This document shows positions 19,296 to 63,079 of a DNA stretch of 64,000 bases, one piece after another (position 1 is the first letter of the stretch; each line of letters opens with the position of its first letter). This DNA comes from Protoeuglena noctilucae (Eukaryota), in the NCBI GenBank assembly GCA_958009085.1, contig OY253678.1, positions 310,001-374,000 of the forward strand, written 5' to 3'. The notes beneath the pieces were generated by a model that saw only the letters and a list, made by a program, of their open reading frames with translations, was not told the origin of the DNA and did not search any database. Made by a program: the position numbers and the translations under genes.

Positions 19296-22200
19296 ATGAG
19301 CGCCGATGAAGCGGAGCTTCGCTCCGCGCTGGATGCCGCGCGAAAGGTGCGTGGATGGGATGGCATGTTGGGCGCCCTGGGCCGCCAGCGCGCGCCCGCC
19401 GTCGACCCCTGTCCCTCGCTATCGAATAACATTGCTTGGATGGTCGAAGCGGCGCTGCCTAGCTCACGACAGCGTGCGTGTCGCGCGCAGGAGCGGGACG
19501 ATGCCGTGGCCCAGGTGGCTCAACTTCAGCAGGAAAACGCGCGGCTGGACGGGGAGCTCGAGGTTACCATGATGAAAATGCGAGAGCTGCAGGCCGACGC
19601 CGCCGAGTCTGCAGGTCCGTCCGCGGCGAGGGCCGGCGCCGGGCGTCTTGGACGTGGTAGCGCCCGAGGATCGCGGCTGGGGATGCGAGCGCCGCAATGC
19701 AGCAGTGAGCAACATGCCATATCCTCGTATGCTCGGCCGCAGAGGAGCTGGAGCGGCTGCGAGACCAGAACGACGTGCTCACGGCCGAGGTGCGAAGGCT
19801 GAAGGACGCTGAGGGCGGCGACCCTGGCCGCAAAGACGAGCAGGTCGAGGCGCTGATGAGCGAGTGCCAGCAGCTCCGCCAGCAGGTGGCAGGTGACTAC
19901 CTCTGCAGTGCGGCAGCACGCTTGGGCAATGGCACAGGCAGTCGCCCCGCCATCACTGCATGCCCTCTCGCATTGCGTTCCCCAGAGGCCGAGAGCAGCT
20001 GGAAGCGGGCGCTGGGCGAGCTGTCGGCGGCGCAGGAGCGCATCCGGGAAGCGGAGGAGTACGAGAAAGCCCTGACCACGGAGCTGATGGACTCACAGCG
20101 CCGGCAGCGGGACGGCGCGTCATTGAAGGACGGGCCCACGAGCGGCCGCGTGAGGCCGCAGCGCGCCTGCAGTCACGCCGCTGCTTTCCAGGCTACCCGA
20201 TGCGACGGCCTCGGCCCCCCGAGTCCCGCCTGCAGATGTCGGGGTCTCAGGACGGAGCGCGGGTGCAGGAGCTGCGCACCCTGGTCGAGCAGCTGCAGGA
20301 GGAGCTGGTGGCGGTGAAGGACGAAGCCGCAACGTCCGAGGCGAAGCTCCGGGAGGAGAACGCCGCGCTGCGGGAGGCCCTGTCTGCGGCGGGGACGGCG
20401 AAGTCCGAGCGCCTGCCGCCGCCGCCGCCCCTCGCGGCCCCGGTGCCGCTCGACCGGCCCTTCAAGACGAGCTACGAGGCGGACGGGGAGCCGCCCGGGT
20501 CGGTGCGCATGGCGGCGCCGGCGCCCGTCATGCCCGTGCCTTCCGCGCAGTCCCGCGCCAGCAAGCCCGAGAGCAAGCCCGAGAGCAAGGTTTCCCCACG
20601 CGCGCCTGGCGCTGGGATGGCGCTGCCCCTCGGCTTCCTGCCTGGGGACTCGAGGGACGCCGGCAGCCTGACCGCCGAGGGCGTCTGGAAAGGGATCTCC
20701 GCCACGGAGCCGCCCCCGCTGCCCGACATCGGCGCCGACCCCGCCTTCGAGGTCAACAGCCGCCCGGCGTCGTCCCACAGCTGGGAGCGCAACCTCGGCG
20801 GGGACTCGGACCTCGACCTCGAGGAGTTCCAGGTGAGGGAGGAGTTTACTGGCAGGGTTTTCTGGCAAGCGCGCCACAAGAGGTGTGACTGGTAGTTTGA
20901 TGAGAAATGGTGCGCCAACGAGTTGACCGCGGGACGCTCGGGCGCCGCAGGTGGACGAGGAACAGGTGGAGGCGGCGCGCAAGATCCAAGCTATGGTGCG
21001 TGGGTTCTCGACACGCCAGAGACTCGCCAACGAGGGCAAGGTCGTCAAGACCGGCAAGGCGGGTCGCAAGCCTGCGGCAAAGGAGGCCGAGGGCGGCAAG
21101 CGGGGCGAAGCGCTGCCGGAGGAAGAGCCAGAGCCAGAGAAGCAGGCCGCTGCGGATGCGGAGGCTGCACGAGACTCCGGTGCGCAGACCTCAACCCAGC
21201 CGGTCCAGGCAGTGGCCCCCAGCAAGTCGAGCCGGACGCGCATGTGGAGCGAGCCGGCCACCGCAACCGGCCGCCCCACGGCCACCCCCGCCTCGTCCGC
21301 GCGCGCCCTCCCCGGCGTGTCGCTGCCACCGGCGGCCCCGGCGACCGCCGCGCCTCCCAGCGGCCCCGCGGATGGCCTCGACGCCGCAGCTCTGGCGCAG
21401 CGGGTGCAGGAGCTCGAGAAGGAGCTGGCGCAGGTGCAGGGGTACGTGGCGGAAGCGGAGGCTTACATGGACGGCCAGGTGTCCGACATGGCGGACCTGC
21501 AGCAGGTGCTGAGCAAGCTGCGGGTCGAGAACGGCGTGCTGCGCGACAAGGTGGAGCGCGCCCGTGCCAGTGCCGCGGACCACGAGCGGCGGGCGAAGGA
21601 GCTGGAGGGTGGCAGTGCGGCCCGGCATGAGGCCGCCTCCGGTGGGGATGCGGGGGTGTCGGACGAGGAGGTGGCGCGGCTGAGGGCCCGCGTGACTGAG
21701 CTGGAGTCGGACATGGCGCACGCCAAGCGCTACGTGTCGGAGATGGAGGCTTACATCGAGTCACAGGCCGCCGACGCGGCCGAGCTGCACCAGGCGATGG
21801 GCCGGCTGCGGGTGGAGGCGGGCAAGAACAACGAGCGGCTGCACCGTCACTAGACCCACGGGGCGGCCGCGAAGGAGCAGCTGGCGGAGCGCGACGCGGC
21901 GCTGGAGCAGACGCGGCGGGCGCTGGCGGAGAGGGAGGGCGAGCTGCGCGCGGCCCAGGAGGCGCTCGACGAGGCGCGGCGGGGCGTGCAGGCGGCGGGG
22001 TCGGCGCCGGGCGCGGACGGCGACGAGGAGCGGCAGGCGCTCGAGGAGCTGCGGCGGGAGGTGGAAGTGGCGCAAGAGGCGCTCGACCGTCAGCGGGCGG
22101 CGTTTGACGTCGCCAAGGACGCGATGGAGGCGGAGCGGCGGGAGGTGGAGGCGCGGCACGCGGCGGAGCTGCAGGCCGCGAAAGAGGCCCTGGCGGAGGC

Positions 22201-25200
22201 GCGTAGGGAGCTGGGCGAGGTCCAGGGAGCGGGGGCCGAAGGCGACCGGGCGTCCATGGAGGAGCTGCGGCGCGAGGTGGCAGCGGCGCAGGAGGCTCTG
22301 GACCGGCAGCGGGTGGCGCTGGCGGAGGCGAGGGAGGCGCTGGAGGCTGAGCGCCGCGAGATGGAGGCGACGAAGGACGCGAAGGGCGCACCGTCGGGGG
22401 CGGCTGACGGCGGCGCGGATGAGGCAGCGCTGGAACAACTGCGACGGGAGGTGGCGGCGGCAAGGAAGGCGGTGGCGGAGGAGAGGGCGGCGTTGGATGC
22501 GGAGCGGCAGGCGCTGGAGGCTGCGCGTGAGACTGGCGACGACGGCGGACGCGCTTCTCTGGAAGAGTTGCGGCGGGAGGTTGCGGCAGCTCAAGAGGCG
22601 CTGGACAGGCAGCGGGCGGCGTTCGATGCCGCCAAGGACGCGATGGAGGCGGAGCGGAGGGAGGTGGAGGCGCAGCGAGAGCGGGCCCGGTCGGCTGCCC
22701 TGTCCGGGGAGGGCGGCGACGCGGCAGCGCTGGATGAGCTGCGTCGCGAGGTGGCGGCGGGCCGGGAGGCCCTGGCCCGGCAGCGGGACGCCCTGGCGGA
22801 GGAACGTGCAGCGCTGGAGGCCGAGCGGGCCGCCCTGGAGGCCGGGCGCGGGAACGGCGGCGACGATGGCCGGGCTTCCCTGGAGGATCTGCAGCGCGAG
22901 GTGTCGGCGGCGCAGGAGGCGCTGGACCGGCAACGCGTGGCCTTGACGGAGGCGAAGGAGGCGTGGGACGTGGAGCGGAGAGCGGCGGAGGCGGCCCTGG
23001 AGGAGAGCAGGGCGGCGGTGGACGTGCTCCGGGCTCAGGTGTCGAGCGAGCAGGAGGCGTTGGACCGGCAGAGGGAGGCGCTGGAGGTGGCGAGGGAGGC
23101 GATGCAGGCGGACAAGGGCCGGGAGTCGGCGGGGGCGGGAGGGGGCGCGACGTCCGCGGAGCGCGATGCTGCGGTGCAGGAGGCCCGCGAGGCGACGAAG
23201 CGCATCGGGGCGCTGTCGCGGGTGCTGGGGACGGCGGCGACGGCCGTGGCGACGCTGGCGGCCGAGGCGGCGGCCGCGGTGGGGACGACGGTGCAGCTGC
23301 CGGGGTCGGACGACTCCGAGGCGCTGCACGGGGCGGCCATCGCGTCCCTGCGCGCGTCCGTGCGGCAGGTCGTGGCCGCCAAGGCAGCCGCGGAGTCGGC
23401 GCACCAGGGCGTCGCGGCGGACCTCGAGGCTGCCCGCGCCAATCAGGCGGAGTTGGAGCGAGACCTCGCCGCGAACCGCCGGGCGCTGCAGAGCACCGTC
23501 ACTGCGCTGCACCGGGCGGCGAAGCAAGGCGAGTCGTGCTCGCAGGCGGTGTTGGCGCTTTGTGGCCCTCGGTCTGTGTGCATTGGGTGCACTGCCATGC
23601 CACGGTGCAAGTTGTCGTGAGCGTGTCTTCAAGTGCCGTGCCCTCGCAGATGAAGCCGAGCAGACGGCCCAGGGCGGGGAGTCGGCGCTGGTGGCGGCGC
23701 AGTGCCGCGCGGAGCGACTGGAGCTCGAAGTCGAGGGCCTGCGCTCCAAGCTGGTCGACGCAGTGTCAGGTGTGGCAGCCTTGTGCTGGCGTGGTTTCGT
23801 GCTTTGCTCATGAGAACTGAGAATGAGCAGGGAGGAATCCTCAGACCTGCCCTGCCCTGCTTGTATGGTTATGTGCGGGTCCATCACTGTGAGCCTGCAA
23901 GCGAGGCCCCCTTTCGCCACCGTCGCCCGCAGCCCGCGACCGGGCGGTGGGGGAGGTGGAGTCCGCGACGCACGGCCGCATGCAGGCGGAGAAGGCGGCC
24001 GAGGCGCTGCAGCAGCAGCTGGGGGAGACCCTGGAGCGACTGGCCAAGGAGACGGAGCGGGCGGAGGAGATGGCCAAGAAGGCCGAGGGCGTGCGCGCCG
24101 AGGCACGGAGGAGCACGCGCGGCTCCGCGCCCAACGGAGCGCCCGTCCTCCGCACGGAGTCGTCGGACGCGTCCGTGGCGCCGCCTGCGGAGGACGCGGC
24201 AGCCGCGGGGCCGGCGGGCGGGGCCACCGGGGGCTCCCCGCCGGCCAAGAAGCCGACGAGGCCGTCCGGGGACCGCGCGGCGAGCGGGCGCGCCCCCGCG
24301 ACGGCGCGCCGGGCCGCCCACGGCGGGGAGAAGCCCGCGGGTGCGTCGGACGAAGCGGACGACAAGGTGGACGGCGGGGGCAGCGGCCCCCGGATCGGCC
24401 TGGCGCAGATCGAGGCGATGATGGACGCGGCGGTCGAGAACGAGGCGCGGTCGCGGCGGCAGGCCGAGCGCGAGGCCGCGAACCTGATGACCGCCTTTGA
24501 CGATCTGTTCCGGGAGGTGTTGCTGGTCGGGGACGCGGCCAGCGAGTGGCTGGGGCGCGCGGACCGCGGCAAGGCGTGCGCGGACCTGCGCCGCGCGATC
24601 GAGGTGCAGGTGAGGCCAACAGCGAGGGTTTGGAGGAGGTGTGCTGACGGTGGGTGCAGGGTGGGCTGAGGCGATGGCTCTGGCATGTCCGTGTGTCGCT
24701 GCAGGTCGGCCGGGCCTTCGACGCGCGCGTGGTGGCAGTGGAGGACCGTTTGAAGGGCGCTTTGGACGAGACGGACCGCATGAGGAAGGAGATGGCGGAG
24801 CTGCACGACCTGGCCGGAGTGCGGGCGCGGGAGCTGGCCAGCGCCCACCAGGAGGCCGCGGACCTCCGGACGTCCATGGTCCGGTTCCAGAAGGACCTGG
24901 AGGCGCGGCACGCGGAGGCCACGCTCAAGCTGCACAAGAAGCTCAAGGCGGCGCTGCGGGGCTGGCGGGAGAGCGACGCGGCCCTCACGCGGTCCGAGGC
25001 GAGGGGCGGGGGGGAAGCTTGGCATGCGAATGGGACACCTGGGATGGAGAGCAATGCGGGTTTGTTCTTTCCCTCTCTCTGTGACCTCTGACCGTGACAC
25101 TCTGACCACGACCGCGCAGGCTCTGCTGGACGAGTGCCGGGAGGAGTGCCAGGTGCTGTGGGAGCGCATCAGCTTGATGGAGTCCATGATGCCGTCCGCG

Positions 25201-26230
25201 GCAGTGGGACACGCGGTGCCGAACTGGCAGATGCCCGCCGCCGCCATTGCCGCCTCGCAGACCAAGACACGGCGCAAGGTGCGCAGCGATGGGCTAGACG
25301 CCGCTGCCCCAAGCTCCTGAATTCGACTCCATTACTGACAACCGCACTCGCTCGCCCCGTCCCCCGCAGTCGACCAAGGTCGTCGCCGCGGCCCCCGAGC
25401 AGGCGGTGACCGGGACAGGCCCAGACGTGAGTCTCTTTGTATCCGTGGCGATGACGTTTCACAGAGACTCGAGTATGAGGAAGCAGCACGCCCACCTCTC
25501 TCCTCGCCCGCAGTCGCCGTACGCCCAGCCCGTCTTCTCCCGGGCCTCGTCCGTGGCACAGGCGGAGTCCCAGGGCCACTCTCGCGCCGACAAGGCGGGG
25601 GCGGGCGCCCCGCGCCCGGCGTGGAGCGCGACCCAGTCGCAGAGCCGCGGCGCGTCGCCCCCCCGGGCCCAGACGGTCCGCTACGCTGCCAACGACCCGC
25701 TGGTCGCCGAGCGCCGCCGCGCCCAGGAGCTGCGGTACATGCTGCAGGAGCTGGAGGCGGAGGCGGAGGCCATCCGGGAGGACGCGACGCTGCGGGCGTC
25801 CGCTTCGTCGCCGCGGCGCATGGCCCGGCCCAAGACGGCGACGGCCCGCACCGAGTCGGCGGGCGGGGCGGCGGGGAGGGTCGCGTCCCAGGTCCACAGC
25901 AACGCGGAGCTGCGGCCGGGCACCCGCAAGCCACGCCCCCGGAGCGCGGTGGTGCCCAAGAGCGTCAGCGCCACCCCGGCACGCGGCGCGGGGGCGGGGG
26001 CGGGTGTTGACGCGGACCCTGCCGCGTCCGGACGGACCCGGCTGTCGAGGGGCGCGGGGGCGTCCGCGGAGGGCAACGGCATGCACATGGTGGCGCCGGG
26101 CGCCGTCAGCGTGGTGCGGGGGCCCAAGGACGGGACGTACGTCGTGCGCGAGGAGGGGCAGGACGTGGGCAGGCGGGCCCCGTTCGTGGAGCAGGGCTAC
26201 GGGCGGAGGCAGGTCGCCCCCGCGCCTTAG
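19296..26230 (+). CDS. Very large coiled-coil protein with one IQ motif and internal repeats, multi-exon; in-frame TAG at 21851-21853
   Basis: IQ motif AARKIQAMVRGFSTRQRL near 20970-21025; E/A/R/L-rich heptad exons linked by phase-compatible introns; no family recognised. Confidence 0.7.
22031..23113 (+). repeat. About 7 tandem coding repeats of 45-60 aa (consensus RASLEELRREVAAAQEALDRQRxAxxxAxxAxEAERR) with Gly-rich linkers
   Basis: Visible in ORF 21986-23620 and as recurring GCGCGAGGTGGCGGCGG / CAGGAGGCGCTGGACCGGCAG DNA. Confidence 0.9.
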
Positions 26231-34800: not shown

Positions 34801-36499
34801 GAGGCAGGGCCGACGATCCCGGCGACCACGGCGCTTGCGGATTGGACAAGGGCGGCTCCCAGGTCCGCGCTGGCGTCGGAGAGGGCGTCGAGTGCCATGT
34901 GCAGGGGCGGTGCGCACGCCCAGGCGACGAAGCGGATGGCGAGGATGGCGGGGGCGAGCAGGGTGGCTGCGGTGGCTGTGGCCAAAGCCTGGAGAGCCAC
35001 AGCGGCAGCTGGCGCGCCTGCGGTCAAGCTCAATACCCCCCATGCATCTCGGCACCGCTGCCCGGCTGCGGCGAGGTCCGCCAGGGCGAAGAGCGCTTGG
35101 ATGTCGAGTCCTCTTCCAGCGTCACCCTCCTTGGGCGCGAGGGCGGGCTGCACGGCGGCCCATGCGAGGTCACTGACGCAAGCCGCCGCGGCGGGGACGG
35201 CGAGCAGGGCGGCCTTCGCGATGCTGAAGAGGCGCAGGAGGGCGTGCGAGTGCAGGACCGACAGACGCACGCCTTCCAGAGCCAGGGGCAGCGTGAGGGC
35301 ATCGATAGCCACGGTCTGCGAGCGCAGGGGAGATGTGTGGCTGTCAGCTACCGTCGACGGGCCACTGCTTGTGAGGGGCGTGCACACGGCGGGGACACCG
35401 CCCCTCGCCAGCTCAATGCGGCACACGGCGAGCTCGCCTCGGGTGCCTTTTTATCCACCGACTCGAAGAAGCCGTGCAGCCAGAGGTGCGCTGGGCGGAG
35501 AAGGCGTTGCAGGGGGCTCTGCAACGCCGCTTGTCGTGAGGGCTGCAAGCGCTCTGCCCTGCGCAGGTGCTCTGCCTCCCTTGCACGCATCCCTCGCAGC
35601 TGCCGATCCACCTGAAGGAAACCAATTGAGTCGCGGATAGCGCTCCAGCAAAGCAGTCGCTCATCAGCACAAGCTGCACGCTGAGAGCGGAGCAGGGCGT
35701 GACTTACTTGGAGTGCCGCGGGTGCCTTGAGTACCTCTCTCCCGCTGGACTTCACCAACTCCGTCTTCACCGATGGGCCCCGCTGCGACGAGGCATCGAG
35801 ATAGACGCAAGCGAAGGCCACGGTGACTCGAGGGGGCGCAGGGATGGGCGCGGGGCGGCGTCGGACTGCAGCAACGGCGCGCGCCAGGAGCAGCGCGAGG
35901 GTCCCGGTGCCGGGCTCCACGCTCATGACGGCCTGCACGGGCCGCAAGAGCCCAGAGGGCACGAGCGGCGGGCGCCAGTGACGGGTCGGGACCGGACCAG
36001 CATCATCAATGGCACCCGGCCGTGGTAGCGCGTCGTGTGCGGTCTCGGACGCTGTGATGGGGTCCGGCAGGGCGTAGGCCCAGGGGAGGAGGGCGAGCTG
36101 CAGCAGCGACCCAATGACGTGGAGGGCCAGCCATGGCGCGAGGGCCAGGGAGAGGAGGGCCTCTGAAACGGTACACCGAGTCCAGGAGGTCGCGACGGCC
36201 CACGTCACTTGCAGGCAGCCGCGGGCGACGAGGACTGGGGCGCGCAAGAGGAGCGCGTGGAGGAAGGCGCCACGGGAGGCACGCGACTTGGAGAGGGCGG
36301 CGGTCACGGCGTTGCGCGCCCGGCGAGCCGACTCGTCCGCGGCCTCGATGGCGCTGCGTGGAACGGCGGGGGCGGCAAGGATGAGGCTCAGCAGCAGGAA
36401 CTGGCCGGGGACGTCCGTACGTCCCTTTCTACGGATGCAATGGAGGCGAGATTGTGACGAAGGCCTAGCGCAGGGCCGTGAGTGGCTCCACATTTTCAC
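31842..36499 (-). CDS. Large hypothetical Ala-rich protein with hydrophobic segments and an acidic, Pro-rich disordered C-terminus; 5' end uncertain
   Basis: Long successive minus-strand ORFs (35348-36499, 34335-35426, 33817-34281, 33368-33820, 31842-33290) with plausible splice sites; no family recognised. Confidence 0.5.
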
Positions 36500-54457: not shown

Positions 54458-55892
54458 ATGGCTGCGAGCACCCCTGCGGTCCAAACCGGGGGTGGTACCA
54501 TCCGCAAGTCCAAGTGGGGCCGCTCGACCCGCCGTCCGCGCGCCTCCTCGCACGGGTTCCAGAGCGTCAGCGAGGAGGGTAACAAGCCTCCCCAAGAGAC
54601 GAGCTCCGAGCCCGGGGGCCTTGCAGGCACGGTCGCTGGGGGCGTCACCTCCCTCGTCAGCACCCTGCTCGGGGCCGTGGGCGCCGGGACCACACGGAGC
54701 CAGGCGCCCGATGCCTCGGACGTAGCCCTGGACGAGTCAGCGCCGCCGTTGTCGGTGCAGCCCCCGGCATCTCTTCAGGCCTCCACGCGGGGTGCCCCGC
54801 CGCAGAAGAAGAAACCCCTTCCAGCCCAGGTGCGTGCCCATGGTAAACAACACGACCTGGACAGTCCATGTTGTACCTGCGCCCCGTCCAGGAGTCAGTT
54901 TGACACCCGTACCCGCGCCCGCCATTGACGACCCAACCCACCGTATGCCTGCGCCGGTTTGCCCTCAGGAGGTCAGCCAGCAGCCCGTCCACCACCACGC
55001 CCTTCTCCCGCGTGCTGTGGAGAGCCGGGACGTCTTAGTCCCGACGGTCGCCAGAGAGCCCAAAGTACCGGTCCAGCATCAAGGCAACCCAGCCAGGACG
55101 GCCCAGGCCCAGCCCATGCAGGGGCCGACAGAGGACCTTCCGAGCAGGGACCTGGCACCCGCACCCGCCCAGCCCTCCGTTGGGCGGCTGCTTGCCAAGT
55201 ACGCCGCCCGGGGCTCGCTCGCGGCCCTCCGTGGAGCAGGGAAGGCAGCACGGCTGGCGGCGCGGCTCACGGCAGCCGCGGCTCGGCACGGCGCCGCCGC
55301 CGCGCGTCGGGGATACGCTGCGGCTGCAGCCGCACACGCCGCCCGCAAGGCGGCTCGCGAGGCGGCCAAAGCCCAAGGCCAGGCCCCGGCCAGGAGCCCA
55401 GCCCCTGCCCCCGGCCGTCCCGTGACATACGCCAACCCCGTGCCGCCGCCGGCGTTGAGTCCCTACGCCTTCAAGACCGCCCGGGCCGCCCAGCAGGACG
55501 CCGCGAGTTCCCTCGACGTGGACGACGCGGGGGCAAGCTTCGAGTCGGCGCGCAGCTGGGCAGCGGAGCAAACCTTGTCGTTCCGGAAGAGCCCCGTGTG
55601 CTCCAAAGCCAAGTCCTTCGTCGGGGTTCACATCGTGCCGGTGCGCTCCCACAGCCCTGACCGCGAGCCTGCGAGGGGTACGGGCCTGGTGCAGGCCTGT
55701 CTGGGCCAGGTCGCGAGGTGCGTGCGGCCGGCGGACCGGTCACTCGGGAAGTCGTGGGCGCCCCAGCCGGATGCGGACGGCAGTCGCTTTGCGCAGGCGC
55801 AGCACGATGCATACCGTGCTGCAGCGCCTTCGCGCGCCTATTCGAGAAACCGCGGAATGGGGCCCTCCACTCGGGCAATACCCGTGCAGTGA
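54458..55892 (+). CDS. Hypothetical low-complexity Ala/Pro-rich protein, at least 2 exons
   Basis: ORF 54458-54828 joins in phase (CAG|GTGCGT...CAG) to the long ORF ending 55892; no family recognised. Confidence 0.5.
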
Positions 55893-56095
55893 GCCTTTCC
55901 CACGGTATCGCGCTATTCACGGTGTGCAAGCACGTGCTGGGGCTGTTGCTGGCGCTCAATTCACCCATGTGACCTGTGGCGGCGTTGATCTAGGAATGCC
56001 TGTGAAGCTACGGCTCTGCGACGGCAACGAGGGGACTACTCGGCTGCCCTGGCACCTGCTCACCGGCTGCGCAAACGACGCTCACGAGAGGCGCG

Positions 56096-56945
56096 CTAGG
56101 GTTCTGTGCAAAGGGCATCTGGGAGGGAAGCAGACAGGCAGGAGGAGTGCACGTCCGCGCAATAGAAGAAGAGATCGCGAGCGTCTGCGTCGGGGGTGAG
56201 GCTGCCGTGCCGCAAGTCCCCAGGCAGCTTGCCCACCCGCAGTGCACCGTCGGCCGGGGGCAGGGGCAGCTCCCACTGCGCCGTAACCACCATCAGCCCC
56301 GGGCGCTTCCGCATGGCCTGCGCGAGGGCGGGAGCCATCTTGCGCATGGCCGCTGGCAACATGAATAAAAACACGACGTCGACGCCCGCGTGCCACTCTG
56401 GGGTCTCCAGTAACGCGAGGATGTCAATGCAGACGAAGGTGGCTCGCGATCCCACTCCGGCCGCAGCAGCCGCGTCCCGGCCCTCCTGCGGACCACCTCA
56501 GGGGACGCAGGCAAGCGTCCGCAAACTGTGGCACTTGTAATTATAGCAGAAACTAGGTCCTCAAGCAGCCTGCGCACCTGCAGTAGCGTCTCGTCCAAAT
56601 CGTACCCGAGAGCTCTGCAGCCCGTTGCGAGGCAGAGGGGCACCAGGACTGCCCCGTTCCCGCAACCGAGGTCGACGACCAGGTTTTCGGGCCTGCAGGC
56701 GTGGGTGGGCGCGCGTGCGTTTAGCTGGCCGCAGTGAAAGCGGTCTGCGTGCGAAGGACAGCCACTCACCCCAGGCTGAGCGACCGTAGCAAATGCTGGA
56801 CCGTGCCGGCGGTGCTGGCGAGGAATGGGGCGACGAAGCCTCTCGCCCAGTCGTAGCTGAACATCGCAGTCGCGTCCTCCTGAAAGAACTCGAAGTAGTT
56901 TAGGATCCGCGCCCCCAGACGATCCGCCTCCCCCTCGTTTTCCAT
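56096..56945 (-). CDS. Class I SAM-dependent methyltransferase, FAM173 (ATPSCKMT/ANTKMT)-like, 3 exons
   Basis: APFLAST..TVQHLL, VVDLGCGNGAVL, ALGYDLD, VVFLFMLP, VVTAQWELP. Confidence 0.78.
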
Positions 56946-56961
56946 TCGTTCGTCGAAGCGC

Positions 56962-57093
56962 TCAGCGTCGAAGGTATTCAAGCCACTTCTCCGCTTGACG
57001 CTTCGCCCAACGCCTAGATACCCATCCCACGGCGATGCCGGCGAGGAAGGAGGCGAGGACGAGCTTCACAGCGGTCTGATTGGCGACGGCCAT
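56962..57093 (-). CDS. 43-aa single-TM micropeptide, mitoregulin-like
   Basis: MAVANQTAVKLVLASFLAGIAVGWVSRRWAKRQAEKWLEYLRR*; hydrophobic helix then basic amphipathic tail; C/G-ending codons in the TM part; gccgcgATGG start context. Confidence 0.65.
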   Translation of the reverse strand: MAVANQTAVKLVLASFLAGIAVGWVSRRWAKRQAEKWLEYLRR

Positions 57094-57379
57094 CGCGGCG
57101 GCACGCCGAGCACGATGGGACGGGGCGGATCGAGCCTCTCGCCACGCAGAGGTTCTTGAGCGACGTAACCTTCTCAATACCAGACACCAGTCGCTGTTCA
57201 AACAAATAAGAGCGCCGGGCCGCAGCAGCACAGGCAATGAAACGTCAGTCATGACAGGGGCAGCCATTGCGTTGCCAGGGAATGTTGTGCGAGTGGATCA
57301 GTGGAAGTGGGCCACAGCGAGCCAGCGAGCTGCCGCTGGACGGCGCTCCCACGGCTGGCTGATGCGGCGGCGGCCTGGT

Positions 57380-60300
57380 CTAAGACGAGTCCCTCAGCCG
57401 TGCCAGCATCTGGTTGTACTGCGCATCCAGATCCGTCTCTCCCAGCTTCGGAAGCCCCTCGACCATGCCCAGGTCCACGAGGACGCGGTGCGCGCAGCCG
57501 AAGCCCGAGAACACCACCGCGTTCTGCAAGGCACAGGCAGGCAAAGGCAGCTATGGATCTCACATCACTGCCACGGAGCCCACACGTACAGCCGGAGCTT
57601 GTTCACGGCCGTCGCGAGGCAGTGCGGCCATACGCCCTCACCACTCCCTGCCCGGGGAACGTGCTGTCGCCCACGCAGTAGAGGCCCTGGACGCTGGTGC
57701 GGTTGAAAGGCATCGAGAGCATCCCGAGGGGCCGGCGCGAGGGGATGGGCCCGTAGGTGCCGTCGGAGCGATTGAGGAACTGCAAGCAGGGGGCGGGCGA
57801 GCACGGCGTGTCGACATGAGAAGCAATGGCTGGGAACGATGACCGATGCCAGACATGCAGCGATGCACAAAGAGTGTTGGAGATGAAGCGAGGTCCATTG
57901 CGTCTTGCTGAGCAACGATGGCCCATATTGAGGCCGCCGGTCCCACCTTGCGGTGCGTGCGGGGCGTCCCGACCTCCACAAAGTCGATCTTGCCGCGGAT
58001 GTCGGGGAAAATCGCGGCAAGGCGATCGATGAGCTCTTGCGACACGCGGTCCTTCTGGCGCTGGTACTCCTCCGCGGAAAGGGTCGACCTGGAAGGGCAC
58101 TCGATGGTGGAGCGTGGTCGACATCGCACCACCTCTGCACCTGGCCTGTGCAAGGGTGGGGGTCAGACCGGGCTCGACAAAACATCAACGGACATATCTC
58201 ACCAGTTATCGATCCAGTCGGGCGTGAAGGCGTGGACCAGGTGCTTCCCGGGCGGCGCGACGGAGGGGTCGAGCGTGGATGGGATGGACAGGAAGACGGT
58301 GCCCCGCGAGTCATACATCTTGGACCAGTCTTCGAGGAGGATGTGGTGGCAATGCGTGCCCTCAGGAAGCGCGTCCGCCTCGACGCCCATGTGCACCGTC
58401 AGGAAAGACGGGGCCTGCGGGCAAGGGGGTGTGGTGAAAGGTTAGGTTAGGTCAGTTCGGTCACCCTGCTTGTGCTGGGTACGACAGCGTGAAATGCAAA
58501 ACCGTAATGTGATCATCACATCACAGCGGTGGTCTGTGGAAGAGACAGGCAGGGCACGTCGCAGCGCTGGCCGCATTCGCAAATGCGGCCGTCCCTCGCT
58601 CGCCTTGGTGTAGCGCTGGCGGAAGAGTTTCTCCGATTCGGGCATCTTCTCCTCGCCGAGCATCCCCTCGAAGGTGTCCCACCGGGTGGCGTTGGACACC
58701 ACAGCACGGGCCCGGTACTCCCGGCCGTCCACCAGACGCACCCCCACGGCCCGCATCGACTCCCCCTCTCCCTGCGCGCCAGCCACGCAAGACCGATGCG
58801 TTCGTAAAGCTCTCTCAGCTCGCCAGGGACACATTCCACTGAAAAGTTGGTCATGTGTTCTCCACCTCCCTTCCATCTCCCCTCAGAGAGTGTGAGGCAG
58901 CCCTTGCCGCTGTGACGTAGGCCTCGTGCACTGTTAACCATGCTAGGCACTCCTCCTTACCTCAGTGATGATCTCCTTCACGTTGGCTTTGAACTCGATG
59001 CGACCCCCGCGCTCCGTGATGCCGTCCGCCATGGCGCGAGGGATACGGCCCACACCGCCCCGCGGGTAGTTGATGCCGCCGTAGTGACGGTCGCAGAACA
59101 CCATGCCTGCGCGTGTAGAGGGCGCCAGTTTGCCACTCTGTCGCTGCGAGTGAAGGCAGTGAGCCAAGCGCGTGTCGCGTGCGCCGCCCTCCTCGCGCCT
59201 CGTCTCACCGGCGTTGATGAAGGGCGTCTTGCAGGCATCCACGGTGCTCCACGCGTAGCACTCCATGTCGATGAAACGCAGGAGCTCCTCGTCCTTGATC
59301 CACTTGCGCGCCAGGTCCCCGGAGTTGACTGCCACGTACCACGCCAGGTTGAGGCTGCGGGCAGGGAGGCAGGGAGGCACAGAAAGTGGTTGGCCCTGTG
59401 CTCCGTCCGCAGCCATCTCACAGCGGCGATTGGCATGCGTCTACGACTCCTCATTTTGCCAGCGCAACACCCCTCACGTCACGTCTCTCGCGCTCACGAG
59501 TAGCGTCGGTCAGCCCATCAGTGAGCCACTCACCAGTGGAAAGGCTCCTTGACAAACTGCTCCAGGAGATAGCGTGGCTCCTCGAGAGACTTGAGCTCAA
59601 TCGCGTTCAGCGCATCAAACACCTCCCAGCACGCGTTGTAGAAACGACGGATGCCCGGCGCCTCGTGGGGCCACTGCAGATGAGCCAAGGGTGCAGTTGG
59701 TGGTACAGCTGGTGAGTCGAGAGCACATTCGGTGACTCCTTGAAAGACCATCCAAGCAGGGCCACAGCCACCCTATCTAAGTACATCGTGCTCACCTTGG
59801 AGCAAAGCTTCGCCAGGTACTCCGTGTAATTGCGTGTAACCTTAATGTCCAGGCCCCCGGGCCTGCGAGAGCGTCGGACATGGTGTCTGGGATGTGCACA
59901 CCCCTCTGTTGTTGCGAGCACCTGACAGGAGTGGCAGGCAGTCCTGCCCGACTCACCGCGCGCCGCCGTTGTCCGGAAGGTGGTAGTGGATCTGCACGGG
60001 ATCGTGGATCGTCTCCAGCTTCTTGCCCACCGCAGCCAGCGCACGCGTGAGGAGGTTGGTGCTGCCGTCTTGGTCCCCAAAGCCAAACATCATCGAAGAC
60101 CCCACGTCAAACGTGTACCCCTCCCGCTCGTACCAGCCCGCAGAGCCACCCGGGATGACGTACTGCGGCCTCCAAGAAGACCGATGGGTGAGTGTGGGAC
60201 TGGGCGAGGTGAGCGTTTCATGTCTCCTATGCACTTTGCTGCAGTGCTCTCTGACTCGCCTTCTCCAGGACTAGGACCTTGGCCCCCTGCGACACCATTT

Positions 60301-61226: not shown

Positions 61227-63079
61227 CTAGGCCGCGTTCAGCACGTCTGTGAACAATCGCGCGCTGTCGGCGTCCAGGGGGAGAAGAAACTCGCTACTGG
61301 CCAGCGCGGAGCTATCGAACACGGCAGGGTCCAAGACCTTCGCGGGTTCTACTTGTTGAGCCGCTTGGGCGGGGAGCAGCAGCGGCGAGGCCCCGCGCCC
61401 CAAGCCCCAGTGCCGGTTGGCGTGGGCACGCGTCGGCTGCAGCGCGTACTCGAGGAATATGGGCAGCACGGGCGAGGGGCCGTCCAGCAGGTCACCGCCG
61501 TCCGCCCACGCCGGGACGCACCACAGGTCGGCCCAGAGGGATGACCCGGACGCAGGCACAATGACCTCCACGTCTGCACAGGGCGCATGGACTGCCGTCA
61601 ATCCGCGCCACGGCCTCACAGCGCGCGGGCGCCGGCGTTGGAACTCACCGGACATGCCCTGCGCCACACGAACCACATCGCTCGTCCACCCGACCAGCAC
61701 CGCCGCATCCCTGGACGTGAACGCCCGCAGGAAGTCGTCCTTCCCGGCCACCATAATTTGGCTTTTGAGTCCACGCAGGACCCCGCGCAGCTTGTCCATC
61801 CCCCCCGGCGCCTTCGCCACCTGAGCTGCCGTGGCGTTGCCACTGCGGGCGCCACATGCTGCCACGCTGTCACCGGACTCGCCCGCGCACGCCCATGGCA
61901 CCTGGCTGGTTGCCGAGCCTGACCTGTGACCGCATATGCGCAGCGCGATCGCCAGAAGCTCTCTCCCTGAATTCGCAAATGCCACCTTGCCGCGTAGCTT
62001 CGGGTGCAAGAGGTCCTTCCAGTCCCTTGGCTGCTCCACCCCTATCTTCCTCAGCTGCGTCCGGTTGAACGCCAGCGCCACGCAGCCCCACCGGTAGGGT
62101 GCCCCGTACACCTGGCCCTGCACACGTGGCGAGCGTTGCGCGGGGTGCAGCTCTGAGTGGCGCTTGCTGGCCACGGTCGCATGACAGGGAAGGCGTCAGG
62201 CGTGCACCTTAGGGTCCGGGTATCCGTTGGCGTCGCGCTGCACCAGGGCATGCCAGCGGGGGCCCAGCGCACGCCACCACCGACACCTCTGGGCATCCGG
62301 GATGGGACGCACCAGGCCACCCCGGATGGCCGGGCCCAGCCAGGCGTCGCCCAGCGTCACAGCGTCCGCCTGCCCAGGTCCTCGCTCCTTGGATGGGACC
62401 CTGCGACGCCAGGCAGGGCGAGGCGGGTGTCTTCAGACGGCGATGGGGCGCGACCTGATCCCATCCAACGGCGCGACCGCGTGGGAGTACAGACGCTCAC
62501 CCTCGCCGGCGCTCTCCCTTCGCCGCGCGCTTCGCCTCCGCGCTCAGCCCGTCGTAACTGTTCTGGAGGGAGTCGCGCTGCGTCATGCCCACGCGGACCC
62601 GCGGGCCCAGCAGCAGCTTCATGTCCGTCTCCCAGTGCAGCGGCATGGAACCCTTGAGACTCACGACCTTGAGATCGAGCGGGGCGTCGAAAACCTGCGG
62701 CGCAACCTTCGGAGCTCTCTCCCGTCATGCACGCGACTCGCGCTGGCGTGCAGGTCGCCGCGCAGAGGCCGCCAAAGCCCCCCACGGCGTGCCACGCACC
62801 TCTTCTTTACGACCATCCAGGAACTTGACCGTGCGGGTCTTAATCCCGAGGCTGGTGGCGAGGCTGTCCGATGAAGCCGCTCGCAGTCGCCAGCCATGGC
62901 TTCCCCAGCGCGCGCACCTCTGTATCCTTGGCTGGCACGACGCGAGCTGCGATTGATGGGCAAAGTAGCTAATTCCTCCTTCAGGCGATCATATCTCTGC
63001 TCAGAGGCTCCAGGGCAGCTGAGCACGAAGCAAGCTGCACATTCCAGTCACCGGGCACGCCCCCGCCTGCCACGACATC
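61227..63079 (-). CDS. Plastid PotD-like spermidine/putrescine-binding protein homolog (ENF2-like); 5' end uncertain
   Basis: LKVVSLKGSMPLHW, VYGAPYRWGC, DWKDLLHPKLRGKVAF, VLVGWTSDV, PASGSSLWADLWCVP, GPSPVLP. Confidence 0.85.

Follow-up and report, generated by a model that had tools for sequence, protein, structure and literature searches.

A bicistronic nuclear locus in Protoeuglena noctilucae with a putative membrane-peptide reading frame ahead of a methyltransferase gene

The locus described here lies on the minus strand of the window, which is the whole 64,000 nt stretch of Protoeuglena noctilucae DNA that was analysed; all positions are given in window coordinates. A spliced mRNA with two open reading frames occupies 55954..57164, these limits being the extent of the longest RNA contig (X10 record 2) rather than mapped ends. 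It starts with a 5' leader of about 71 nt without an AUG (57094..57164), which is followed by ORF1 (56962..57093), encoding 43 amino acids with a hydrophobic segment at about residues 8–25 and then a basic tail free of proline and glycine. The first-pass annotation had placed a 43-codon ORF at 57093–56962, stopping 16 nt ahead of an ATG at 56945 in another frame, and the coordinates agree with it. The 16 nt spacer (56946..56961) belongs to the 3' arm of a predicted RNA hairpin of 78 nt (56941..57018, core 57012–56947), which takes in ORF1 codons 26–43, the stop codon and the spacer. A 3-codon ORF in the third frame (57014..57025) is contained within ORF1 and has its stop at the 5' foot of this hairpin.

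The methyltransferase gene starts at the ATG at 56945, in the +1 frame relative to ORF1, and encodes 226 amino acids in three exons. Exon 1 (56770..56945) carries an acidic N-terminus and the DW motif of its subfamily, exon 2 (56578..56692) contains the SAM-binding motif I, and exon 3 (56096..56485) runs through the stop codon. Both introns are GT-AG, the first of 77 nt (56693..56769; RNA contigs X8 and X10) and the second of 92 nt (56486..56577; RNA contig X10). When graded by the −3/+4 rule of two other algae (PMC11892635), rather than by a consensus of this genome, the ORF1 AUG is in good context with G at −3 and +4, the AUG of the internal 3-codon ORF likewise has G at both positions (fair context), and the methyltransferase AUG is in weak context with C at −3. 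A second in-frame AUG is found in the methyltransferase frame at 56864, just ahead of the subfamily motif. Several relatives of the enzyme seem to begin at or within three codons of this point (P0017, L064, L072, L078 and L079).

Co-transcription of the small ORF and the methyltransferase, as originally proposed, is supported by a single spliced RNA contig that covers both. This contig (X10 record 2; 1,042 nt, 57164–55954) has both introns spliced out and is unbroken across ORF1, the spacer and exon 1, and two others, X8 record 11 (56921–57158) and X11 record 5 (56917–57087), span the spacer unspliced. The 5' RNA cover ends at 57164 (X10), 57158 (X8) and 57154 (X13). These are metatranscriptome contigs and not single molecules, a single study supplied all three RNA runs, and the X10 sample is possibly the source of the DNA; such contigs drop rare isoforms. 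The spliced enzyme is also recorded in a protein collection from a 1,042 nt contig (P0008, P0009). The mRNA is spliced, contiguous in RNA and laid out with the two ORFs as described.

All 189 sampled words of 55900–57800 are present in six (X1–X6) of the 24 listed runs, two of which are guessed to be DNA and four of unrecorded kind, with two flagged as a possible source. In the four runs compared with the region there are no indels or substitutions. The junction is therefore not an assembly error, and an assembly indel merging both ORFs was rejected, as the region is identical in the runs compared and the frames differ.

The gene upstream, which we take to be carotenoid-isomerase-like, has its last exon and 3' UTR at 57185..57523 (minus) and ends separately, its poly(A) site at 57185 being marked by a poly(T) loose end in X11 at a point without a genomic A-run. 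A longer, 101-aa reading from an ATG at 57267 starts inside this 3' UTR and outside the RNA contig, and given the poly(A) site is therefore not part of the bicistron RNA. Tricistronic read-through from the upstream gene was likewise rejected on account of the poly(A) site; that the RNA pieces listed leave 57165–57184 uncovered is a weak argument, five pieces not being shown. RNA cover of the bicistron begins just 20 nt beyond the upstream poly(A) site (57165–57185, minus), which requires the bicistron promoter to lie within the upstream gene's 3' UTR.

By profile search only the FAD/NAD-binding N-terminus of the upstream gene is recognised, and it contains an RNA-confirmed GC-AG intron of 189 nt (58603–58415, minus). 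A gene upstream of it (61230–62195, minus) matches the bacterial extracellular solute-binding families SBP_bac_8 and SBP_bac_6. On the other side, an Ala/Pro-rich open frame at 54726–55892 (plus) converges on the 3' end of the bicistron; it has no Pfam match and one short RNA contig at 55430–55595. The stretch 20000–26000 is GC-rich and strongly skewed, with overlapping open frames of up to 1,135 codons, and is probably a repeat-rich gene.

The AlphaFold2 model of the enzyme has a mean pLDDT of 79.6 and its top Foldseek matches are 5BXY, a Salinibacter methyltransferase, and the archaeal aKMT structures 5FA8, 5JWJ and 5FAD (E 2e-11 to 1.5e-9). A sequence search of the PDB agrees with the fold, its best matches being the same group. 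Identity in the structural alignment is 19–22%, and the algal enzyme differs from aKMT and 5BXY in having the extra acidic N-terminus and the DW motif. FAM173A/B, according to PMC9006661, are remotely homologous to aKMT and possess an N-terminal membrane segment as well as a targeting region preceding the methyltransferase domain. FAM173A/ANTKMT and FAM173B/ATPSCKMT thus share the aKMT-related seven-beta-strand group with the algal enzyme (PMC9006661), and the original label of 'FAM173-like' is therefore fair at the level of fold. Membership of the FAM173 family is not supported.

The nearest eukaryotic relatives form a separate set that combines an acidic or Cys-rich N-terminus with the DW motif, F-x-[YF]-D-W-x-x-G-x-V-[AS]-P-[FY]; the members named, from ten proteins looked up, are from Pyramimonas, Tetraselmis, Prasinoderma and Spironema. 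Among the 50 rows that bear the DW motif, the query and 49 relatives, not one shows a hydrophobic stretch ahead of the catalytic domain, and the same holds for the 39 subfamily rows selected by a stricter motif; such a stretch occurs in 14 of the 100 other matches. In a quick tree of 150 matches, which include no identified FAM173 sequence and in which the query is a long branch, the 50 DW rows fall on one side of a branch with SH-aLRT 91. What sets the algal enzyme apart from FAM173A/B is its lack of an anchor, its acidic N-terminus and its separate subfamily. Many members have a zinc-ribbon-like Cys-x2-Cys N-terminus (P0019, P0024, P0036, P0037; L017, L039, L054) where others have the acidic stretch, and the DW-motif subfamily has no Pfam model of its own. 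Nowhere else in the genome matches the subfamily as well as the bicistron locus. A protein search with the whole enzyme returned eight distant matches and no close relative, and one with the extended exon 1 found nothing among 23 candidates.

On its sequence and modelled fold, the enzyme is a putative soluble SAM-dependent methyltransferase of an uncharacterised eukaryotic subfamily within the aKMT/FAM173 fold group, and most likely would act on protein lysines. The mitochondrial location first suggested for it finds no support: there is no anchor, and residues 1–40 have a net charge of −5, unlike a classical presequence, although the signal of FAM173 is itself atypical (PMC9006661). The proposal that ORF1 supplies a missing anchor in trans also falls away, since the enzyme's own subfamily lacks an N-terminal membrane segment and no anchor is therefore missing. 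A complex prediction for ORF1 and the enzyme, run without an alignment, scored 0.00 and counts neither way.

ORF1 looks like a real orphan single-pass membrane peptide. It is the only one of 1,337 ATG ORFs of 30–60 aa (264 kb) with a hydrophobic segment followed by at least four K/R residues, the segment alone being present in 13 of them, and a tail that is open, basic and without Pro or Gly arises in 0.06% of 20,000 base shuffles; the criteria for both the census and the shuffles were chosen after ORF1 was seen. Codons 1–22 are coding-like, with GC3 of 19/21 and only 3 of 375 overlapping non-coding windows scoring as high. Codons 23–43 score as non-coding, with GC3 of 8/18 and none of 97 coding windows that low, and this second half has an intron-like GC content (0.58). 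The codon model behind these scores was built on about 1,200 codons and its non-coding null included only one 5' leader. Signal anchors for mitochondrial or plastid outer membranes combine a moderately hydrophobic helix with basic residues after it.

No homolog of ORF1 was found: the word-indexed protein search gave one candidate, ORF1 itself; the best ESM Atlas score was 0.77 with no usable named match; PDB and NCBIfam yielded nothing beyond a chance match to formate dehydrogenase gamma; and the N-termini of the enzyme's relatives do not match it (best E 0.34). ORF1 is present as a single copy in its own genome. There is therefore no evidence of purifying selection on ORF1. Two contigs of other organisms that match 57029–57062 do so through an acidic low-complexity stretch on the opposite strand and were taken as chance. 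A 967-aa ribonucleotide reductase (P0003) in ORF1's 90% cluster is a database artefact.

ORF1 could alternatively be an ordinary regulatory or neutral upstream ORF whose peptide has no function, its hydrophobicity arising from a C-rich leader and the hairpin either damping translation or being a chance inverted repeat. This would suit the want of homologs in the databases searched and the intron-like, non-coding codon use of the second half, and the single leader in the non-coding null leaves room for it. Upstream ORFs are also common in Chlamydomonas, and their distance to the main ORF is shorter than that between bicistronic partners (PMC7896298). Set against it are the membrane-anchor layout unique in the census, the coding-like first half and the protein-like tail that is rare in shuffles. 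We regard this explanation as unlikely, with an appreciable chance nonetheless, and prefer that the mRNA encodes two separate proteins.

A conserved pairing of ORF1 with the methyltransferase is not supported by the family loci compared. From 84 metagenome pattern matches to the subfamily motif, 23 clear family loci were kept by profile search and 61 dropped, and none of the 23 has an ORF1-like upstream ORF (best E 1.4); these loci are distant, with no close relative among them, several are near-duplicates, and they offer 158–1,500 nt of upstream DNA. As the pair is absent from these 23 distant loci, on this sequence comparison it does not appear to be ancient across eukaryotes and is so far lineage-restricted. 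At one of the loci (L039) an unrelated 83-aa ORF with a strong hydrophobic segment ends 98 nt before the methyltransferase start.

A second alternative to a single two-protein mRNA would be a pair of overlapping transcripts, of which the longer would serve ORF1 while the methyltransferase would come from a shorter one that starts in the second half of ORF1. This second half would then act as promoter and leader too, accounting for its odd codons and for the abrupt change of codon use at codon 23. Green algae have many loci that are polycistronic in part (PMC7896298), and the contigs, giving one depth per record, would merge nested transcripts. X10 nevertheless has no break or loose end inside ORF1, and the depth of X8 is similar on either side (5.2 and 5.7). 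ORF1 is, moreover, followed by no poly(A) site, and both ORFs would thus remain on the long mRNA. Overlapping transcripts are in our view improbable.

Fusion of the two ORFs was considered in several forms. Ahead of the enzyme ATG the +1 frame runs open over 40 codons, and +1 recoding had been suggested as a way of joining the products. The frame stays open for at least 36 codons in 63% of 5,000 codon-biased synonymous resamplings (14% with flat usage), so that its openness does not exceed what chance would give. The final 22 codons of this frame have a non-coding score, and the recoding proposal is not upheld. The intron envisaged from the GT at 57021 to the GAG ending at 56961 is absent from the RNA contigs. 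What could be imagined instead is a minor isoform in which the hydrophobic half of ORF1 is spliced from a GT at 57030 or 57021 to an acceptor at 56880 or, less likely, joined by a +1 frameshift, giving a membrane-anchored enzyme of FAM173-like architecture. The coding signal of ORF1 stops at these two phase-0 GT sites. The acceptor, in frame inside exon 1, looks canonical, with a pyrimidine tract, CAG and a branch-like hexamer that also occurs in intron 1; the introns would be 142 or 151 nt, within the observed range of 77–189 nt, and contigs would drop such a rare variant. The junction is however unspliced in all three RNA runs, and no fused product is found among the enzyme's seven cluster members. 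Each candidate donor lacks one of the G(−1)/G(+5) pair that is present in 6 of 6 RNA-confirmed donors compared, that of intron 2 among them. The subfamily is anchorless, the enzyme's first 22 codons are strongly coding, and no slippery site is evident by inspection. A fused isoform is quite improbable.

The resemblance of ORF1 to mitoregulin (MTLN), proposed in the first-pass annotation, was not sustained by profile search. The mitoregulin profile PF22002 matches ORF1 in register, residues 12–32 on profile positions 13–33, at E 0.021, and with 15.2 bits against a cut-off of 27 it ranks third behind two generic membrane families. Of three candidates scored across the genome, two match the profile (20.2 and 15.1 bits), both away from ORF1, and E. 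coli is matched as well. Of the 12 other hydrophobic-segment ORFs, ten served as controls, two nested duplicates being excluded; none of the ten matches the mitoregulin profile, and three draw best Pfam matches at E 0.03–0.08, one of which may be a real channel exon. Mitoregulin is described from mouse and human and is similar in size and single-pass layout (PMC7019099), at 56 aa against 43 for ORF1, with no intermediate homologs found. The single membrane helix followed by basic residues is shared by both and is a generic feature. Since the score is below cut-off, the genome's matches lie elsewhere, E. coli is matched and control ORFs draw chance matches, the resemblance is probably generic and is unproven. 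That ORF1 is an algal mitoregulin anchoring a mitochondrial FAM173-type lysine methyltransferase in trans, for which the in-register match that no control shares, the layout and the distant aKMT homology of FAM173B (PMC9006661) can be cited, is highly improbable given the score tied with unrelated membrane families, the matches in other places, the acidic and anchorless N-terminus that the enzyme shares with its subfamily, and the absence of the pairing from the 23 family loci. The evidence does not support an algal mitoregulin, the discovery of which would have been very surprising.

The hairpin over the stop-to-start junction (57018–56941) has a predicted stability of −37.7 kcal/mol, z about −4.4 to −4.5, and none of 200 shuffles is as stable. 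It was one of four tiles tried, and the three neighbouring tiles fold unremarkably. A folding scan covered a sample of 1,162 out of roughly 1,400 tiles in the window; two of those scanned reach z −4.4 and five reach −4.0. Other 91 nt tiles with z < −4 are located near 35218 (plus) and 9582, 18773, 14314 and 32787 (minus). Folding is favoured on the minus strand by 12.8 kcal/mol over the plus strand, which itself folds with z −3.9, and the hairpin may therefore be an old inverted duplication. In the prediction the enzyme AUG is placed in a weak basal helix at the 3' foot, and the 3-codon ORF, which overlaps this helix, stops 1 nt short of the core stem. Among 13 swaps to the commonest codon, four weaken the fold, five strengthen it and four make no change, and synonymous resamplings fold as well in 57 of 1,000 cases when codon-biased and in 1 of 1,000 when flat. 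The odd codons in the second half of ORF1 are only in part explained by the hairpin. No such hairpin before the start was found at the 19 testable family loci. An Rfam search of 56800–57300 returned three matches (E 0.23–4.2), all far below the gathering cut-off. A selenocysteine/SECIS reading was rejected, there being no Rfam match and read-through missing the enzyme's frame.

The genome (26.3 Mb, 27 contigs) encodes PsaH (97 bits), a green-lineage photosystem I subunit, and is therefore placed in the green lineage. Green-algal bicistrons with a short first ORF and 14 nt spacers are known (Gallaher 2021, PMC7896298; Duenas 2025, PMC11892635). The REX1S/REX1B, OST4 and TOM22 loci described there resemble the present one in having one mRNA with a short leader and a short first ORF in another frame; the REX1 spacer is 14 nt where the present one is 16 nt, and known first ORFs include small membrane proteins. 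FAM173 is not named in the supplements of PMC7896298 (seven files) or PMC11892635 by term search, nor is mitoregulin in those of the latter; the methyltransferase rows in the two sets are SET, PrmC, BUD23 and two loosely annotated genes. FAM173B was also not found named in literature matched to FAM173B and algal terms, a coverage that mostly excludes subscription papers. The locus is a real, previously unlisted green-algal bicistron of a two-in-one layout already known there.

It differs from these bicistrons at the junction. The leaky-scanning signature of a weak first AUG, a strong second and few AUGs before the second ORF is absent from the locus; here the first AUG is good and the second weaker, opposite to their rule, and the internal AUG is fair. 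The junction also has a strong hairpin, and the words 'hairpin', 'stem' and 'shunt' do not occur in the main text of PMC11892635. The experiments reported there favour leaky scanning over reinitiation, which they cannot fully discount (PMC11892635). Reinitiation is possible after ORFs of less than about 50 codons (PMC5902531). The layout recalls the short-ORF-dependent ribosome shunt of plant pararetroviruses in the same source, where an ORF of a few codons terminates at the base of a stable stem and a start codon lies just beyond. There, however, the short ORF is 5'-proximal, ends 7–8 nt before the stem and is followed by a UA-rich landing site (PMC5902531). At the algal locus the ORF1 AUG comes first, the 3-codon ORF ends 1 nt before the core, A/G-rich coding sequence follows the stem, and the stem is small and sits inside a coding ORF.

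We infer that both ORFs are translated. The favoured explanation, to which we give slightly better than even odds (about 0.52), is a nuclear mRNA that encodes two separate and probably unrelated proteins, the membrane peptide abundantly and the methyltransferase sparingly, by leakage or reinitiation at the hairpin junction. One capped and spliced mRNA would thus yield two proteins. Most scanning ribosomes would start at the good-context AUG of ORF1 and make the 43-residue single-pass membrane peptide, whose hydrophobic segment and basic tail suggest a signal anchor for an organelle outer membrane. Less of the enzyme would be produced, by ribosomes that bypass the two upstream AUGs through leaky scanning or, likelier, reinitiate after ORF1 (43 codons) or after the 3-codon ORF; leakage is probably the lesser route because two well-placed AUGs and a stable stem lie ahead of the enzyme start. 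Plain scanning would be hindered by the hairpin, whose stem would be melted by ribosomes elongating through ORF1, and ribosomes that reinitiate late could still start at the second in-frame AUG (56864). The hairpin, if it forms as modelled, may limit the amount of enzyme made.

A stronger form of this explanation, which is doubtful at present, would be a bacteria-like translational coupling in a eukaryotic nuclear bicistron, in which the hairpin blocks scanning and only ribosomes translating ORF1 or the 3-codon ORF open it and reinitiate. Methyltransferase output would therefore rise with ORF1 translation, opposite to the green-algal leaky-scanning rule. If the hairpin does gate the second ORF, the locus would be a compact natural test of reinitiation besides leaky scanning in green algae and a 90 nt part for coupling two transgenes. 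The locus adds a bicistron, an orphan peptide that looks like a membrane protein, and a putative methyltransferase of an uncharacterised subfamily, from an alga without close sequenced relatives in the databases used.
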